Shown here piece after piece: positions 1,798 to 8,048 of a DNA stretch of 8,048 nucleotides. This DNA comes from a virus (lineage: Duplodnaviria > Heunggongvirae > Uroviricota > Caudoviricetes), in IMG/VR virus record IMGVR_UViG_2681813273_000001, one strand, 5' to 3'. The stretch's first letter is position 1. Every line of letters begins with the position of its first letter. The notes under the pieces are model-generated. The model made no database searches. It worked only from the letters and a program-made list of their open reading frames with translations, and was not told the origin of the DNA. A program made the translations under genes and the position numbers.

Positions 1798-2580
1798 TTA
1801 TGCTGCCCTTTTCATTGCGAATGGAACGCGAACAAACACGATCTCTTTATAGCAGCGGCAGTTTGGCAGCTCGCCCGCGTGGCCGGTCATGCCGTCCAAA
1901 GTTGGAGGTGAATCCCAGCGGACGAATTTACCTTTCATGTGATCGTGGGAATCTCGGACATCGCCATCATCGGCTGTACGCCAAATATAACCATCCGAGC
2001 CAATAGCTATCGCTCGGGCCATATCCAGCGCGCCCGTTGCTCTTCCCAGTTCCGTTCGGGCAATCAGATCGGCCCTAGACTTAGCAACATCGCCGGTAGA
2101 TGCAATCTCTTTAGCAAACTGCTCCGCCCGACCACCGGTGACAACAGCCTCTATCGCTTTGTTCTGGATGTCGTACACCCTGTCTGCGGCCTCGAGAGGC
2201 AGAGATTTGATGTACTTGACCTGTTCGGCGATGATGGATTGCATCACCTGGCCCACAGGAGCGCTTTCCACAAGATTGCGGAGCTCGCGACTGATGTTCT
2301 TGCTGTGTTGCCGCCAAACTTTCTCGTTCTGCCGGGTTAGGTCCGCAGTAAAGTTTTCCGCGACCTTTGTCGCCCAGGGGGTGATGATTTCACTGTAACG
2401 CTCCAGCGCCGCAATAATTTCCGTGATACTGTCATTTGAACCATCGTAGCGACCATTTACGATGTCTCCGACCGCCCTCGCTATCCTGCGTAGGCTGGTT
2501 CGATACCGGATTTCCGCCTGACGGCTCCTGCGGTTCGTCATCAGGTTCGCCGATGCCGGGCGGCGCTTCATCTTCGGCAT
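1798..2580 (-). CDS. Phage head morphogenesis protein, SPP1 gp7 / Mu F-like minor head protein (260 aa)
   Basis: Seen: ORF with ATG at 2580..2578 preceded by GAGGA about 8 nt upstream; TAA at 1800..1798. The motif region (ARTELGRA ... NCRC) and the position directly after the portal gene match the Mu F / SPP1 gp7 family (established family knowledge, recalled not searched). The start is uncertain: ATG also at 2571 and 2541, and no ATG/GTG/TTG exists in this frame between 2541 and 2435, so the gene overlaps the portal 3' end by at least 110 nt. Confidence 0.75.
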   Translation of the reverse strand: MPKMKRRPASANLMTNRRSRQAEIRYRTSLRRIARAVGDIVNGRYDGSNDSITEIIAALERYSEIITPWATKVAENFTADLTRQNEKVWRQHSKNISRELRNLVESAPVGQVMQSIIAEQVKYIKSLPLEAADRVYDIQNKAIEAVVTGGRAEQFAKEIASTGDVAKSRADLIARTELGRATGALDMARAIAIGSDGYIWRTADDGDVRDSHDHMKGKFVRWDSPPTLDGMTGHAGELPNCRCYKEIVFVRVPFAMKRAA

Positions 2581-3514
2581 TCTCGATGTCCTCGTCGGTA
2601 ATGGATGCCCCGATGCCGGTTACGTCAGAATTTTCTCGCAAATCAGTCATAGCGGCTTTCAGTGTCATCAGACCATCACCCAGCGCCGTACTGATTGCGT
2701 TGGTGGTGTTTAACGCCACCGTTGAGCGATCGACATCAGACATTTGCCAGAGCGGGTTAAACTCAAACGTGAAATCGTCCGGCAGCGGCTTGCCAAGTTC
2801 CGAACGATGCATGATGTCCAGTATCCGCCGCACCGGAAGACGTAAACGCCTCTCCTGCAACGAACTGATGCGATCGTAATAGTTGGCAAGGTCTGCATCA
2901 CCGGTAGAAAATCCTTTCGGGGACTGTCCGAACAACCGCACCAGTGGGATACCAACAGCGCCACTAATCTGTTCTACAAACTGCGAAAGGATGTCATCCA
3001 GACCACTGAAGCTGTACTGATGGGTTTCAAACTTATCCCGCGAGTCCATGAGCGTCATGCCTTCATTACTCTGGAACTGTCGAATCAGGTCGATATTCTT
3101 CAGCAACGCTTCATACGCAGGACCACCAAGTGCGATAAGCTCGCGTAGCTTCTCCACGCTGTAGGTACGCAAATGCGCCTTGTAGACCAGCTGCGCCGCG
3201 CCGACAGTAGCGCTGTCGAACGCGGTAAGACGATCCCAGATACGCTCTACAACCGACATTCCCCATTCGTTCTCGGTCATCTTCTGCTGAAATGGCAACG
3301 TGACGCCATCAAAGCGAATCAGGCGACTGTGATGAATGCGCCAGGCAGGAATTCCCGTTGCTGTGGTCACCACATCGTAAAACTCAGGTTTACCCAGGTC
3401 CGGCCCCATATCTTTAATGCGGCGGGTCAGTGCCGGGTCGACCATCCAGCGGTCGAGCGGGAGAATCCCCTTAAACTTGCCCTTACCGATGGTTTCGGGT
3501 CGCAGCGGGGTCAT
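2432..3514 (-). CDS. Phage portal protein (SPP1 gp6-like), longest uninterrupted segment of the portal reading frame (360 codons)
   Basis: Seen: ORF from ATG 3514..3512 to TGA 2434..2432, with an acidic C-terminal tail (DEDIENAEDEAPPGIGEPDDEPQEP...) typical of portal proteins. Position immediately downstream of the large terminase. The same frame continues upstream to an ATG at 3898 but crosses two TAG codons (see next feature). Confidence 0.75.
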   Translation of the reverse strand: MTPLRPETIGKGKFKGILPLDRWMVDPALTRRIKDMGPDLGKPEFYDVVTTATGIPAWRIHHSRLIRFDGVTLPFQQKMTENEWGMSVVERIWDRLTAFDSATVGAAQLVYKAHLRTYSVEKLRELIALGGPAYEALLKNIDLIRQFQSNEGMTLMDSRDKFETHQYSFSGLDDILSQFVEQISGAVGIPLVRLFGQSPKGFSTGDADLANYYDRISSLQERRLRLPVRRILDIMHRSELGKPLPDDFTFEFNPLWQMSDVDRSTVALNTTNAISTALGDGLMTLKAAMTDLRENSDVTGIGASITDEDIENAEDEAPPGIGEPDDEPQEPSGGNPVSNQPTQDSEGGRRHRKWSLRWFK

Positions 3515-3898
3515 TGGTGCCTACCCCTCAATCATGATGAAACCCACCGCGCCGCCGTAGAGGCGCGACCATTTCAGCACGTCATTCAGCGCATCCCAGA
3601 TTTGCAACTCATCCAGTTGTGATTCGAGAATGCCACGATCTTTTGCATCAATTTCCGAAGTGATGCGAATGCCTTTGCGGGTCATATCATCCGGGATAGC
3701 ATCGACTGCTTCGCCGATGATCTAGGATGAACGATAGGACCATTCCACCAGCATGCGGTTACGACTGGTGAAATTAGCCCGGTAGGTGGATGCTGAGTGC
3801 TGGTTAGGTGTCTGCATCCCTACGCGGGCAATAAAATTCTCATAACCATCAGCTGTGGCCTGCACAGTTCGCCGCAGGGCTTGTTTGTTTCGTGCCAT
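3515..3898 (-). pseudogene. N-terminal part of the portal reading frame, separated from the rest by two in-frame TAG (amber) codons at 3724..3722 and 3523..3521
   Basis: Seen by hand translation: ATG at 3898..3896 overlaps the large-terminase TGA (ATGA); frame reads MARNKQ...EWSYRSS-TAG-IIGEAVDAIPDDMTRKG...GFIMIEG-TAG-APMTPLRPE... and is the same frame as the 2432..3514 ORF, with no frameshift. Full frame 3898..2432 is 489 codons, which fits portal proteins of this type (~500 aa). Inference: either a genuinely disrupted portal gene, amber mutations, or base-call errors. Confidence 0.65.
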
Positions 3899-5307
3899 CA
3901 GGCCTGTCTCCCCAGCTGTTCCCAGATATCCAGCGATGTATCGATTGGCGCGAAGGCCATAATGAATGCATCAGCAACGTTTGGTGACGGTATCTCGCGT
4001 TTTGCGAGGTCTTTTTTACTTTCGACCATCACACGTCCGTTACGGTCGAAATCACGATGAGGTGTTGTCAGTTCCAGTTTCAGCTTTTCAAGCAACGGAC
4101 AACGAGAATCTATGCTGATCAGCTCATCCACAGGATACTGTTCTCCGTTGTTAATGGCGTTAAACGTATTTCTGAAACGGTCAGCCACCAGCCACCATGC
4201 CTGAGCCTTAAGATTTGCGAAAAAGTCTTTGTTGGGGATGCCGTTGTACTCGTCATCTGGCTCATGCACACCAGCACCGGCGTTAAACCTCTGGTAATTC
4301 ACACGTCGCGCGTATGCGTTCTCGCTCTTCNTCTTCCGGTCAGCGTTAATTTCAGAGAATTTAGCACCGGCAGACGCACCAACACCGATAGAGTCGTAAA
4401 CAATATCTGCTTCACGCTCCAGCGCCGCCTGATAAGTACGCTGGCAGCTCTTCAGTAATTCATCTTCTTTGGCCTTCCATTCGTCGGCCCAGAAAACAAC
4501 GGATCCGTGACGGTAAACGTTAGCGCACTTATCTGTACCACTGTCAGCCACGTCAAAGCCAATACGCTTTCTTCCACTGGGTTCGAAATTTAACGTTTTG
4601 TGCGCATCCACTGCGGCTTCTATCCAAGACAGTTTGATGATTGCCGCATCATCATCAGACTCCGGAACGCCCTCATACACATGTTTAAAACCATCCGGAT
4701 CACGGCGTCGCGCCGCGTCGATAACCTTAAGCATGGTGTCAGACAGAAACGGATTTTCGTCATAGTTAATTTTGCGGATGAGAGTGCCTTCGGGCGGATC
4801 AACAACGAAGTTGCGCCAGACGAAATCAGTAACAAGTCCGGGGTTGAATATGAACCAGCATTCCGAACCCTCTTTACGGATCGTTGGCTCCAGAATTTTC
4901 CACTGGTATTCCGTCAGTGCGTGGGCTTCTTCCAGCCACAACACATCGATCCCCTCCAGTGACTTAATTTCTTCGATGTTGCGCCATAATCCATAAAAAA
5001 CAAATTCCGAGCCAGTAACCCGGTTAATGATTTTGTTGTTCAGAATACGGAAACGGTGCCGCAGACCAAACCTGTCTATCTGAATTTTGAGCAGGGTATA
5101 CACCGACTCTTCGATTTTATTCTGGATCTGACGGGCACAACAAAAACGCAGGGTGTATTTATTCGACAGAAATATGGCAATGCCAGCGGCATCCCATGAT
5201 TTTGACGATGACCGACCACCATAAAGCACTTTGTTACGTGCCCGCATAGTCCAGAAACTACGTAAAGCCGGATTCAGCGTCGGTTTGGATGTCAGAGTAG
5301 AAGTCAT
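3898..5307 (-). CDS. Terminase large subunit (PBSX/SPP1-type, Terminase_3-like ATPase-nuclease)
   Basis: Seen: long ORF ending TGA 3900..3898. Walker-A-like VLYGGRSSSKSWD near the N-terminus, Walker-B-like IDVLWLEEAH, and a C-terminal acidic nuclease-like region (GFDVADSG, DAFIMAF). Start chosen at ATG 5307..5305 (MTSTLTSKP...) with GGAGAG about 10 nt upstream; alternative ATGs at 5334, 5331, 5325 and 5247 cannot be excluded. Contains an ambiguous base (n at 4321). Confidence 0.85.
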   Translation of the reverse strand: MTSTLTSKPTLNPALRSFWTMRARNKVLYGGRSSSKSWDAAGIAIFLSNKYTLRFCCARQIQNKIEESVYTLLKIQIDRFGLRHRFRILNNKIINRVTGSEFVFYGLWRNIEEIKSLEGIDVLWLEEAHALTEYQWKILEPTIRKEGSECWFIFNPGLVTDFVWRNFVVDPPEGTLIRKINYDENPFLSDTMLKVIDAARRRDPDGFKHVYEGVPESDDDAAIIKLSWIEAAVDAHKTLNFEPSGRKRIGFDVADSGTDKCANVYRHGSVVFWADEWKAKEDELLKSCQRTYQAALEREADIVYDSIGVGASAGAKFSEINADRKXKSENAYARRVNYQRFNAGAGVHEPDDEYNGIPNKDFFANLKAQAWWLVADRFRNTFNAINNGEQYPVDELISIDSRCPLLEKLKLELTTPHRDFDRNGRVMVESKKDLAKREIPSPNVADAFIMAFAPIDTSLDIWEQLGRQA

Positions 5308-6022
5308 TGAGGTCACGCTCTCCATTGCCATCATCAATACCTGCATCACGGCGAAGACGATCAGCCTCCAGAGACACCTTATCAGTGGCGGCCTTGCGGT
5401 AGGCTGTATCAGCAAATATTTTTCCTACCGTCGCAAGCGTGCCAACGATGGACTCAATACGAACTGTATTGCGCATCATTGCTTTCTCGGCGGCGCTGAT
5501 ATTTTCAATCAGCATCTTCCTTTCCTGGTCCCCATTAGCATCTTCCAGCGACACCAACCACCGACCAATATTCTCTGCAGCGACAAGGTTGTTAGCACGA
5601 AGGCGAAATAATTCGTCCTCGAGCGTCAACGCTTTAGCGTCCTCTATCACCTCATCTTTGAGCAGAAGGCGACGGGCATAACCACCGTGTTTTAATGCCT
5701 GCTGGTTACCGGGTTGGAATGGGTTAGTCGGGGGATCGGTACGCATTCCGCGTATCGGTTTCGTATCCGGTGTAGATTCTGTTTTTAGTTGCGTACTTTT
5801 TTGTGTAAGGCCAGTAATGGCAGGCTTTCTGCTGGTACGCACTTTCCTTTTTTGCGTACCATTTTTGCAAACCTGCGTACCGCCACTGCGTGCCCAACCA
5901 AGCTTTTTGGCCCTCTTCCTGATAGCCCCTTCTGTAACGCCGTATTTCTCGCCTATATCACGGAGGCTAAGGACTCCGGCCCGGTATGCCGATTCGATGG
6001 CCTCCCAGTCCGGTTTTGCCAT
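5258..6022 (-). CDS. Terminase small subunit with N-terminal helix-turn-helix (254 aa)
   Basis: Seen: ATG at 6022..6020 with AGGAAG 6-7 nt upstream; TAG at 5260..5258. N-terminus MAKPDWEAIESAYRAGVLSLRDIGEKYGVTEGAIRKRAKKLGW matches the HTH-type N-terminal pattern common to small terminase subunits (recalled). Located immediately upstream of, and overlapping, the large terminase gene. Confidence 0.75.
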   Translation of the reverse strand: MAKPDWEAIESAYRAGVLSLRDIGEKYGVTEGAIRKRAKKLGWARSGGTQVCKNGTQKRKVRTSRKPAITGLTQKSTQLKTESTPDTKPIRGMRTDPPTNPFQPGNQQALKHGGYARRLLLKDEVIEDAKALTLEDELFRLRANNLVAAENIGRWLVSLEDANGDQERKMLIENISAAEKAMMRNTVRIESIVGTLATVGKIFADTAYRKAATDKVSLEADRLRRDAGIDDGNGERDLNDFYSDIQTDAESGFT

Positions 6023-6219
6023 GATTATGCTTCCTGTGATTTACTGTTATCGCTGCCTGTCACAATAGGTTGCTTTAATTCTTCCTCATCACTCACTCCT
6101 GCGACGCTCCGTGGCAGGGCCCCCCACAGGAGTACCTTGTAAATGTAAGGTGTTTAAGCCTAAATTAAGTCGTATCACGGTTAAATAGCAAAGAAAAATT
6201 CACAGAAGGAAAGACATTG

Positions 6220-6729
6220 ATGGAGTGGATAAATGCTTTGATGAACTATTTTGTACTTCATCCATATCGCCTATGGGGGCTTCTTTTTATAATAGCGTTC
6301 ACAAAATCCACTTTACTCATTTCGGCGATATTGCCACCAGCATCAATTATGATGGCCACTGTAATTACAGTCAGCAAGACGACTCTTTCACCATGGGAAG
6401 CTGGAATCACGGTCATGAGTGGCGCATGGTGCGGTACTATCGTTAATTACCATCTTGGTATAATAATTGGGCATATCCCTCAACTTGCATGTATAATATC
6501 AAGCCGTTCCAATACAATAGAACGGGTTCGCCTTCAGTTGCAAAATAACTCTGTGTCAATACTTTTCACTTCGCGCTTTATCGCCGTGCTGCGTTATATT
6601 GCTCCTTTGGTGGCAGGAATGTTGCAACTTCATCCAGTGAAAGTGTATACAGTGAGTCTGATTTCAGCTGCTAGCTGGTCAGCACTTTATGTTGGTAGTT
6701 TTAGCTTCGTGTTGCCTTTTTTTAGCTAA
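6220..6729 (+). CDS. DedA-family (SNARE-associated/TVP38-like) small inner-membrane protein; prophage moron (169 aa from ATG 6220)
   Basis: Seen: ATG at 6220 (the ORF track starts at an in-frame TTG at 6217), GAAGGA RBS about 10 nt upstream, TAA at 6727..6729. About four hydrophobic segments. Motifs GTIVNYHLGIIIG and SRFIAVLRYIAPLVAGM closely resemble the E. coli DedA signature motifs (G.AVNY..GR and RF.P..R...P.VAGM), recalled from memory. Visibly AT-richer than flanking phage genes and on the opposite strand to the late operon. Confidence 0.6.
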   Translation: MEWINALMNYFVLHPYRLWGLLFIIAFTKSTLLISAILPPASIMMATVITVSKTTLSPWEAGITVMSGAWCGTIVNYHLGIIIGHIPQLACIISSRSNTIERVRLQLQNNSVSILFTSRFIAVLRYIAPLVAGMLQLHPVKVYTVSLISAASWSALYVGSFSFVLPFFS

Positions 6730-6817: not shown

Positions 6818-7288
6818 CTACCCCCCAAGGCATTGGATCCTGATGTACTCCTGAAGCATTCTCAATGCTGTCTGGTCGCTGATGATTCCGTCCCGGATAC
6901 CGAGAACGTTTCGTCCAGCAACTGGAGAGAGTTCGACGGTGGCATCATTGCCCATGCCGGAGGCGCTGGAGGTTTCGGCTGAGGATGGCACAGGGCATTT
7001 TCCTTTGACGAGCACCCGACCACCATTATCAAGCTTGCGCCGAAGAGCATCATTTTCAGCTTTCGCATCAGCTAACTCCTTCGTGTATTTAGCATCGAGT
7101 GCATCAGCATCACGCTGGCGCTGCTGCATGTCAGTAATGGTTGCGTTCGCCAGCTTCAGTTCTCTTGCGTTTTTGTCGCGCTGCTCTTTGTAGGTAATGG
7201 CGTTATCACGGTAATGATTAACAGCCCATGACAGGCGGACGATGATGCAGATAACCAGAGCGGAGATAATCGCGGTGACTCTGCTCAT
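6818..7288 (-). CDS. Rz: Rz-type i-spanin (inner-membrane spanin subunit)
   Basis: Seen: ATG at 7288..7286 overlaps the endolysin TGA (ATGA); the ORF track starts at an in-frame GTG at 7300. N-terminal TM segment ([20 protein letters not shown]) followed by a charged, coiled-coil-like periplasmic domain; TAG at 6820..6818. Position and architecture match lambdoid Rz. Confidence 0.85.
6862..7068 (-). CDS. Rz1: Rz1-type o-spanin (outer-membrane lipoprotein), embedded in the +1 frame of Rz
   Basis: Seen: ATG at 7068..7066, TGA at 6864..6862, lying entirely inside Rz in another frame. Product [19 protein letters not shown]|SS... has a lipoprotein signal peptide with lipobox VVGC, followed by a Pro-rich mature region ([11 protein letters not shown]), the hallmark of Rz1. 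Confidence 0.8.
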
Positions 7289-7782
7289 TGCTGCCCCCAC
7301 AAACAGACTTCACGCTCAATCTCACGACGGGTCATCAGCCCTTTCCATTGCTTACCGCCAGCATATGTCCAGCGACGTAGCTGGTCACATGCGCCTTTGA
7401 TATCGCCCTGGTTTATTTTGCGAAGAAGCGTCGATGTTCTGAAATTGCCAGCGCCCACGTTGTAAACGAACGAGTAAAGAGCGCCGCGCGTTGTTTCCGG
7501 TATATCGACTTTGATGTACGGGTTAATTTGTCTGGCGACAGTGGCAAGGTCTTTATTCAGGAGGGCTTTGCATTCTGCTTCGGTATACGTTTTACCGAGC
7601 ATGATGTCTTTTCCGGTGTGTCCGTGACATACAGTCCATACACCAATGATATCTTTGTATGGTATGTAGCTGACACCTTCCAGACCATCGTTACCACCTG
7701 GGCCAGTGATTAACACAGATGCTATAGCAACAGCCCCGCCACCAATAGCAACTGCAACAGCCTTGCGTAATGATGGCGACAT
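7285..7782 (-). CDS. R: SAR endolysin (T4-lysozyme-type muramidase with signal-anchor-release N-terminus), phage 21 R-like
   Basis: Seen: ATG at 7782..7780 overlaps the holin TAA by one base (TAATG); TGA at 7287..7285. N-terminal Gly/Ala-rich weakly hydrophobic segment ([20 protein letters not shown]) typical of SAR domains; catalytic triad spacing E-x8-D-x5-T present ([17 protein letters not shown]). Near-identical by recollection to the phage 21 R endolysin / DLP12 rrrD family. Confidence 0.9.
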
Positions 7783-8048
7783 TATTCACCTCTCGCAGCC
7801 TTACGCTTGTCTTCTCTTATTTTGAAATACAGATTNNNNNNNNNNNNNNNNNNNNNNNNNNNNNNNNNNNNNNNNNNNNNNNNNNNNNNNNNNNNNGTCA
7901 GATAAGTCAGAAGCCCCAGAAGCAGACTTCCCAGCACACCAATCGCAGCCCACTGTGATGGACTGACCTGATCCAACCACTGCAAAAACCAGTAGCCGGC
8001 ACTGCCGGCGGAGGTGCCGTAGGCAATGCCTGTTGATATTTTTTCCAT
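7782..8048 (-). CDS. S: Class II holin (pinholin), phage 21 S-like; reading frame spans a 61-nt N-run; a possible upstream alternative start would lie beyond the window edge
   Basis: Seen: ATG at 8048..8046 (last bases of the window), TAA at 7784..7782. Translation [50 protein letters not shown]-(N-run)[17 protein letters not shown] matches the S21 pinholin as I recall it ([68 protein letters not shown]). S21 is known to have dual translational starts a few codons apart, so the longer form may start off-window. Confidence 0.85.
7836..7896. other. Run of 61 ambiguous bases (assembly gap or masked segment) inside the holin gene
   Basis: Seen directly: n at every position 7836..7896. The flanks are in frame with each other across the run (2 + 61 = 63 nt = 21 codons). 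Confidence 0.95.

Follow-up and report, generated by a model that had tools for sequence, protein, structure and literature searches.

The window analysed here, the whole 8,048-nt stretch of a Caudoviricetes record (IMGVR_UViG_2681813273_000001), carries a phage head module that lies entirely on the minus strand (Table 1). The portal gene was identified through its intact homologue, which matched the Pfam profile PF06381 with 355 bits against a cut-off of 33.8 (E = 3e-106); RefSeq annotates it as a DUF1073 CDS, and its product is related to Pam3, E217 and other solved portals. The gene directly downstream matched PF04233, the MuF family, with 68 bits against a cut-off of 29.6 (E = 1.5e-18). 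Embedded Rz/Rz1 spanin genes occur in the same window, which also contains Ns (4331; 7836–7896), and in intact homologues the TerL/portal junction is a 1-nt overlap.

Table 1. Genes and sequence features of the head module, in positions of the window.
Feature	Position	Strand	Remarks
Small terminase candidate	5258–6022	–	Head module
Large terminase	3898–5415	–	PF04466
Portal gene	2432..3898	–	PF06381 Phage_portal_3/DUF1073, 488 codons; this copy broken by two amber codons
MuF-like minor head/head-morphogenesis gene	1798..2580	–	PF04233; 260 codons from the conserved start
DUF2213 protein	574–1794	–	Head module
Cement/decoration-like protein	64–570	–	Head module
Putative dual-coding region, 149 nt	2432..2580	–	Last 49 portal codons plus stop; MuF codons 1–50 in the +1 frame
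MuF start ATG (favoured)	2578..2580	–	Within portal codons AAT-GCC (N440-A441); conserved in 38/38 loci
MuF Shine-Dalgarno GAGGA	2589..2593	–	Written in portal codons GAC-GAG-GAC (D-E-D); lies 8 nt ahead of the ATG
Portal stop TGA	2432..2434	–	Spans MuF codons AAT-GAC of the invariant YDGSNDS motif
MuF codons 22–44 (AEIRYRTSLRRIARAVGDIVNGR)	2449..2517	–	Conserved first helix of the MuF fold (predicted); overprinted by the portal tail
Alternative in-frame MuF ATG	2539..2541	–	PGAP's start, 110-nt overlap; not conserved
Amber W59* (TGG>TAG) in portal	3722..3724	–	Private to this copy
Amber Q126* (CAG>TAG) in portal	3521..3523	–	Private to this copy

The 3′ end of the portal gene and the 5′ end of the MuF gene interpenetrate, the MuF frame being +1 relative to the portal frame. 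The portal translation ends in ...ENAEDEAPPGIGEPDDEPQEPSGGNPVSNQPTQDSEGGRRHRKWSLRWFK* (in another excerpt, ...ITDEDIENAEDEAPPGIGEPDDEPQEPSGGNPVSNQPTQDSEGGRRHRKWSLRWFK) at TGA 2434..2432. A preliminary description of this DNA had called the tail acidic; this holds for its first part, which is proline-rich as well, but not for the last 14 residues (GRRHRKWSLRWFK), which are basic and aromatic. The MuF frame is open from position 2610 and offers in-frame ATGs at 2580, 2571 and 2541. Counted from ATG 2580 the overlap measures 149 nt, and with the latest possible start it still measures at least 110 nt. The coordinates and frames of the portal stop and of the 149-nt out-of-frame overlap given in the preliminary description are correct, and its observation that the MuF frame holds no ATG, GTG or TTG between 2541 and 2435 was confirmed.

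For comparative analysis, 80 genome loci were fetched, and 35 Enterobacterales genome loci were combined with three annotated records into a set of 38 loci, from ~15 Enterobacterales genera, all of which held the overlap architecture. The MuF start codon (ATG, or GTG in Yersinia) occupied the same alignment position in every locus, and 33 of the 38, including all 32 in which this start lies inside the portal DEDI motif, carried GAGGA or AAGGA 8 nt upstream; the remaining five are Xenorhabdus loci with a portal insertion, which use GGAG at –8. The preliminary proposal of ATG 2580 as the MuF start, served by a GAGGA ribosome-binding site, was thus borne out. The portal codon lying over the start was always NNT followed by G, while its amino acid varied between N, D and S; as a control, in lineages with the MuF start elsewhere the same portal position carried T in only 3 of 27 cases. 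Likewise, the Glu codon that forms the Shine-Dalgarno (SD) sequence was GAG in 32 of 33 Enterobacterales loci, compared with 13 GAG to 9 GAA in lineages that start MuF elsewhere. Portal codon choices preserve both MuF start signals.

Equivalents of the ATGs at 2571 and 2541 were found in a minority of loci only: a start codon at MuF residues 10–16 was missing from ~20 of the 35 genome loci, and ATG, TTG or GTG occurred at residues 10–14 in 15. Gene callers nevertheless differ, PGAP choosing 2541 and others 2571 or ATGs further downstream; the records of Salmonella phage SEN34 and phage vB_EcoM-689R2 likewise use downstream MuF ATGs, by which the overlap is avoided. The choice among 2580, 2571 and 2541 rests on conservation, and since the start codon, the SD sequence, the portal codon choice and the MuF N-terminal homology (see below) are all conserved, we infer 2580 to be the conserved MuF start and the overlap to be 149 nt long.

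At its C-terminus, the portal was conserved in every lineage up to the motif ITDEDIxxAExE-PPPP. Distant portals stop 10–25 residues past this motif, and the solved 444-residue portal 9jlf aligns to residue 452 of the protein studied here and ends five residues further. Because distant portals end ~30–36 residues earlier, the last 30–36 portal residues are best read as a lineage-specific extension, not an indel artefact. A scenario raised in the preliminary description, with homologous portals ending upstream and an indel at this site, does not fit the alignments, in which the portal stop site is conserved in close relatives. The stop fell at MuF residue 49–51 in 33 of 38 loci; the five deviating loci have it at MuF residue 32 (L034), 54 (L024, L038) or 61 (L032), so the length of the tail is not strictly fixed. 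In Enterobacterales, the stop is built within the invariant MuF motif YDGSNDS, either as TGA from AAT-GAC or as TAG from GAT-AGC, which accounts for the constancy of its position. The conserved-looking portal ending LRWFK is an echo of MuF YDGSN.

Selection in the two frames was assessed by pN/pS, averaged over all pairs of the 38 loci. Outside the overlap, the ratio was 0.23–0.46 for MuF and 0.24–0.33 for the portal. Within its proximal part it was 0.87 for MuF codons 2–20 and 0.68 for the first 20 overlapping portal codons, and within its distal part 0.35 for MuF codons 21–49 and 0.89 for the last 29 portal codons; standard pN/pS is unreliable in overlapping frames, and by this measure the portal tail has no constraint of its own. 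Apparent synonymous divergence was lowered in both frames (0.28–0.59 within the overlap vs. 0.71–0.74 outside), and the codon-position diversity profile was flattened in both. Dual coding with a division of labour would be expected to leave such a signature, the portal motif apparently being dominant in the proximal part and the MuF helix in the distal part.

A further line of evidence comes from stop codons that might have arisen in the portal frame. When MuF codons were resampled synonymously with local codon usage, the portal frame stayed open in ~7% of cases (range 1.5–37%); elsewhere in MuF, the same off-frame contains 0.063 stops per codon. At the stop-prone third positions of A22, G38 and V41, parsimony counted at least 26 changes among G, C and A and none to T, and the Y45 codon was TAC in 38 of 38 loci. 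All 16 control columns downstream contained T (37% of states; 173 changes). That T was never seen at stop-prone sites otherwise changing freely is suggestive of selection against premature portal termination, given that the sequences are related and that only four stop-prone columns are fully conserved. Together, these patterns suggest that the openness of the portal frame across the overlap is non-random and that truncation of the tail is selected against.

The alternative that fares best accepts the overlap as real and questions only the portal extension, which would have no function of its own: a read-through tail that arose by stop loss or a frame change, is tolerated, perhaps trimmed after assembly, and kept by phylogenetic inertia. 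The portal ratio of 0.89 in the last 29 codons is consistent with such a tail, as are the LRWFK ending that echoes MuF YDGSND, the different tail lengths of some lineages, and the homologous solved portals that end ~30–36 residues earlier. It leaves unexplained, however, why ~49 codons stay open in 38 diverged loci despite a probability of ~0.07 per sequence, and why a stop-creating T never appears at synonymous sites otherwise free to change. We consider a functionless tail possible, though less likely than not.

For the MuF side, an exhaustive HMMER search returned 6807 hits. Most of the best 150 of the 6807 representatives align from query residue ~17–20 and have 6–50 more residues upstream, and residues 17–50, whose codons belong to the overlap, have homologous counterparts in thousands of MuF proteins, those of relatives with only a 4-nt overlap among them. 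Conservation of the MuF-frame peptide SRQAEIRYRTSLRRIARAVGDIVNGRYDGSNDS extends to Xenorhabdus, Arsenophonus, Morganella, Providencia and Pantoea (60–70% overall identity). A PDB sequence search with the MuF profile returned no solved relative; AlphaFold predicted a long helix for residues 10–44 (block-mean pLDDT of 81 and 85 for residues 21–40) and disorder for residues 1–15. In relatives without the overlap, too, MuF has a basic N-terminus. The contrast drawn earlier, of a basic MuF N-terminus and an acidic portal segment read from the same DNA, was upheld for the proximal part. By the alignment of both proteins to homologues that the preliminary description had proposed, the portal extension is lineage-specific, and MuF homology begins upstream of 2435, against the scenario, also considered there, of a family start downstream of that position.

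These data bear directly on a second alternative, in which there is no dual coding at all: MuF would start only past the portal stop, the part of its ORF ahead of that start being fortuitous. Databases do hold MuF forms of 202–205 aa and 176 aa with hundreds of members, and SEN34 gp4 and the head-morphogenesis protein of 689R2 are annotated accordingly. Yet the next in-frame start after 2541 is Met residue 113, and beginning there would remove more than 100 conserved residues; the ATG that SEN34 uses (residue 56) is missing from the window. Moreover, the residues at stake are conserved family-wide, non-overlapping relatives included, show a pN/pS of 0.35 and form a confidently predicted helix. 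A downstream start is therefore highly improbable. Gene callers penalise long overlaps, leaving thousands of N-terminally shortened MuF proteins of this phage group in public databases, in forms of 244–248, 202–205 and 176 aa, the latter two without the conserved helix.

A third alternative takes up the fusion by ribosomal frameshifting that the preliminary description had voiced: the overlap would exist for programmed +1 ribosomal frameshifting, or for bypass at the portal stop AAA-UGA-C, yielding a portal–MuF fusion. A +1 slip at AAA_TGA_C would enter the MuF frame at D50; portal/MuF fusion architectures have been reported in some phages (PMC5512222); and a rare fusion could mimic the stoichiometry of SPP1 gp7, a MuF homologue bound to the portal in 1–2 copies (PMC5576092). 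However, a sequence scan of the overlap, of the kind called for earlier, found no X_XXY_YYZ heptamer and no homopolymer of four or more nucleotides; +1 contexts were scanned as well, which left AAA_TGA_C as the only, weak, slip candidate. RNA folding of the overlap and of the MuF initiation region gave z-scores of +0.84 and –0.37 relative to shuffled sequences, i.e. no significant structure. Folding no different from shuffled controls also excluded both a frameshift stimulator and an SD-sequestering hairpin as candidate elements. Stop contexts are not conserved either (11 variants in 38 loci, with AAA_TGA in 14), MuF possesses its own conserved SD sequence and ATG, and a fusion at the stop would miss the conserved first helix of MuF. 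Among the best 150 of the 6807 MuF representatives, there was no N-terminal portal fusion, at most ~130 residues preceding the domain; long homologues in this set extend C-terminally, in the way described for MuF toxins (PMC5576092).

Given that a +1 shift would be needed and that neither slippery site, structure nor fusion was found, the frameshifting proposal finds little to stand on, and we judge it very improbable. The same slim chance attaches to a functional read-through of the portal C-terminus, which in its boldest form would have a low-frequency +1 slip or bypass at AAA-UGA-C generate a fusion by which the portal dodecamer would receive one or two copies of MuF; were a fusion of this kind formed by a slip at the portal stop, the overlap would be a stoichiometry device.

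The remaining proposal of the preliminary description, an artefact, is readily tested by comparison with finished genomes. The region shares 99.9% identity with complete E. coli genomes, where the RefSeq/PGAP annotation has a DUF1073 protein of 488 aa, uninterrupted, and a MuF gene that overlaps it; matches to the region were found in 382 of 5426 complete E. coli genomes and in seven phage records. An alignment of the window with two E. coli prophages, phage 689R2 and SEN34 was gap-free across the overlap, which was better conserved than its flanks. SEN34, an isolated, viable temperate myovirus seen by electron microscopy (PMC5261728), is 82% identical overall and has the same 149-nt overlap. 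The Ns of the window, together with the two nonsense codons that only this portal copy carries, do point to flaws in sequence quality or in the integrity of its genes. Still, a frameshift introduced in sequencing or assembly, or an indel that this genome acquired recently, is next to inconceivable as the origin of an overlap whose sequence is identical in complete genomes and whose architecture recurs in isolated phages and in independent assemblies of 38 loci from ~15 genera, and the artefact reading is rejected on these comparative data.

The nonsense codons themselves concern this copy alone. Relative to the intact 488-aa gene of E. coli FDAARGOS_944 (99.9% identical), the portal differs by W59*, Q126* and one missense change, so that the window holds no intact portal reading frame. 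The two ambers were absent from all of the 358 complete E. coli genomes that carry the segment, and the best identity among these, 99.2%, corresponds exactly to both nonsense mismatches. Unless the ambers are sequencing errors, the portal of this copy is probably a pseudogene and the prophage, carrying two amber codons in this gene, probably defective; here, the overlap would be an inherited architecture, and dual translation may not occur.

Comparison with more distant relatives revealed a graded series of overlap lengths. Portal and MuF genes meet in a 4-nt ATGA junction, in the other relative frame, in Bosea, Rhizobiales and Desulfovibrio; they overlap by 11–41 nt in Bryobacteraceae and Chelatococcus-like genomes, by 59–77 nt in Pseudomonas and Acinetobacter, by 92 nt in Chitiniphilus and Arsenophonus, by 152–167 nt in Burkholderiales and by 134–179 nt in Enterobacterales (Arsenophonus, with its 92 nt, excepted). 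ATGA junctions were confined to distant relatives (L055, L056, L068, L075 and L081). On the MuF tree, deep overlaps, in which the portal frame reads 83–119 nt into the MuF helix, formed a single derived clade. Judging from these relatives, the ancestral state was a 4-nt ATGA junction, or a portal ending upstream of the MuF helix, and the deep overlap is a derived trait common to a clade of Burkholderiales and Enterobacterales prophages.

Taken together, the comparative sequence data make it highly probable that the two neighbouring head-assembly genes genuinely share this DNA in different frames and that the arrangement has been conserved in evolution. Of the readings first offered, genuine dual coding is the one that gains support, from the conserved start and SD sequence, the MuF helix encoded within the overlap, the portal frame kept open across genera, and a viable phage with this arrangement. 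Ribosomes on the portal frame would run to TGA 2434..2432, and others would begin MuF independently at ATG 2580, using the GAGGA within the portal codons for D-E-D-I-E-N-A. Over the proximal ~20 codons, the DNA would serve the portal as the acidic, proline-rich motif AEDE-PP and, in the +1 reading (KMKRRP...), MuF as its disordered basic N-terminus; over the distal ~29 codons, it would specify the first helix of MuF, the –1 reading giving the lineage-specific portal tail, which is of low complexity and probably disordered. Such sharing may be tolerated because what one frame requires suits the other: portal codons that are acidic and rich in GAN turn basic in +1, the portal triplets GAA GAT GAA, for example, being read as AAG ATG AAG. 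As they cross the initiation site of MuF, ribosomes translating the portal would probably lower MuF initiation by transient occlusion, which would suit a low-copy, portal-associated MuF protein such as SPP1 gp7, and the overlap would link the two genes tightly. Termination–reinitiation is implausible, since the portal stop sits 149 nt downstream of the MuF start.

As a kind, the overlap is ordinary. Overlaps of more than 50 nt are annotated, at least one per genome, in about 61% of dsDNA virus reference genomes (PMC7017920), and out-of-phase terminal overlaps are known to arise by stop loss, by an upstream shift of the start or by overprinting (review, PMC8227390; survey, PMC7017920). The initial impression of an unusually long overlap hence stands relative to coupling overlaps of 1–4 nt but not relative to dsDNA viruses in general. 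The portal/MuF case resembles other out-of-phase phage and virus overlaps in that the frames lie on the same strand, one of them dominates in each part, the encoded peptides are compositionally biased and disordered, and synonymous divergence is depressed. It differs from the typical case, in which one partner is a novel accessory ORF, in that portal and MuF are both ancient, well-known structural genes and that each covers a conserved element of the other: the N-terminus of MuF is superimposed on a portal motif and the tail of the portal on a MuF helix, which makes the overlap reciprocal.

One of the closest individual systems is SPP1, where muf directly follows the portal gene and the minor head protein gp7 (MuF, PF04233) binds the portal, with 1–2 copies per capsid (PMC5576092). 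Here, too, muf adjoins the portal gene in the packaging module; unlike SPP1 gp6/gp7, described in the literature consulted only as adjacent, portal and MuF have 149 nt in common, and the portal is of another Pfam family (PF06381/DUF1073); portal binding by this MuF protein is putative. Micro-overlaps for translational coupling (ATGA, TAATG) are found in the Bosea, Rhizobiales and Desulfovibrio relatives of this very gene pair; in contrast to these, a 149-nt overlap requires MuF to have an SD sequence of its own, which is conserved. As in the lambda G/GT tail chaperones, late-gene frames overlap and a fusion is conceivable, but there is no slippery sequence, stimulatory structure or conserved shift site here, the required shift would be +1 instead of –1, and MuF, as the downstream gene, starts on its own. 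With Rz/Rz1, finally, the pair shares the reading of one stretch of DNA into two phage proteins in two frames, but Rz1 lies wholly inside Rz, whereas portal and MuF are otherwise separate genes with a terminal overlap.

Our literature search found no description of a portal/MuF overlap, only general overlap surveys and papers on MuF/portal synteny. The kind of overlap and the 110-nt RefSeq annotation are thus known, and what is specific here is the gene pair, the reciprocal overprinting and the graded series among relatives; no new mechanism is revealed. The main practical value lies in correcting MuF annotations, for which the comparative data fix the likely true start. Beyond annotation, the locus shows cleanly how two old structural genes have slid into each other in nature, with relatives forming a graded series from 4 nt to ~160 nt, and it would lend itself well to work on the growth of overlaps and on the sharing of sequence by two proteins, an acidic portal linker being read here as a basic MuF N-terminus.

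Public entries for the MuF-like head protein of this phage group proved in many cases to be N-terminally truncated, in forms of 202–205 aa and 176 aa that number in the hundreds of cluster members. These entries lack the conserved first helix or helices of the protein, because annotators picked downstream ATGs that avoid the overlap with the portal gene. At the opposite end of MuF, the window and the Shigella/E. coli loci L005 and L006 have in common a C-terminal tail (…VFVRVPFAMKRAA; window 1798–1860), unlike other close relatives, whose tail reads …VFPNPHSYLA. The differing tails suggest a recombination or indel boundary immediately ahead of the DUF2213 gene.

Coordinates of features in the window and in compared phage records, with the proteins and loci concerned
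Feature	Source	Position	Strand
Truncated MuF	SEN34 (L003)	1107–1715	
Truncated MuF	689R2 (L004)	1110–1640	
Truncated MuF proteins	P0060, P0064, P0114, P0116		
Portals with extra C-terminal segment	Xenorhabdus L021, L023–L025, L029; Pseudodesulfovibrio L075		
Portal amber nonsense codon W59*	window	3722–3724	minus
Portal amber nonsense codon Q126*	window	3521–3523	minus
Single N, large terminase gene	window	4331	
61-nt N run, putative holin gene (7782–8048)	window	7836–7896	
170-aa membrane protein, VTT/DedA-type domain (PF09335)	window	6217–6729	plus
Rz (PF03245)	window	6818–7300	minus
Rz1 lipoprotein (PF06085), in another frame inside Rz	window	6862–7068	minus

The portal gene of the window is interrupted by two amber codons, neither of which occurs in any of the 358 complete E. 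coli genomes holding the segment; the prophage is probably defective, or else the codons reflect sequence errors. The N positions in the terminase and putative holin genes are either assembly gaps or masked sequence.

Rz and Rz1 form a classical embedded pair and thereby a second, well-known dual-coding region of the window. Between the terminase genes and this lysis cassette lies the membrane-protein gene, on the strand opposite to every phage late gene, which may represent a moron or cargo gene.

Among MuF homologues, the 388-aa metagenomic protein P0113 combines PF04233 (MuF) with PF09950 and could be either a fusion of MuF to another protein or the product of a frameshifted assembly. Some portals, from very distant hosts, share an extra ~60–80 residues (…NGAQISSMVEIVSSVAAGLLPRDTGIQMLISSY…) between the PP motif and the MuF start; this segment resembles a mobile domain at the portal C-terminus.
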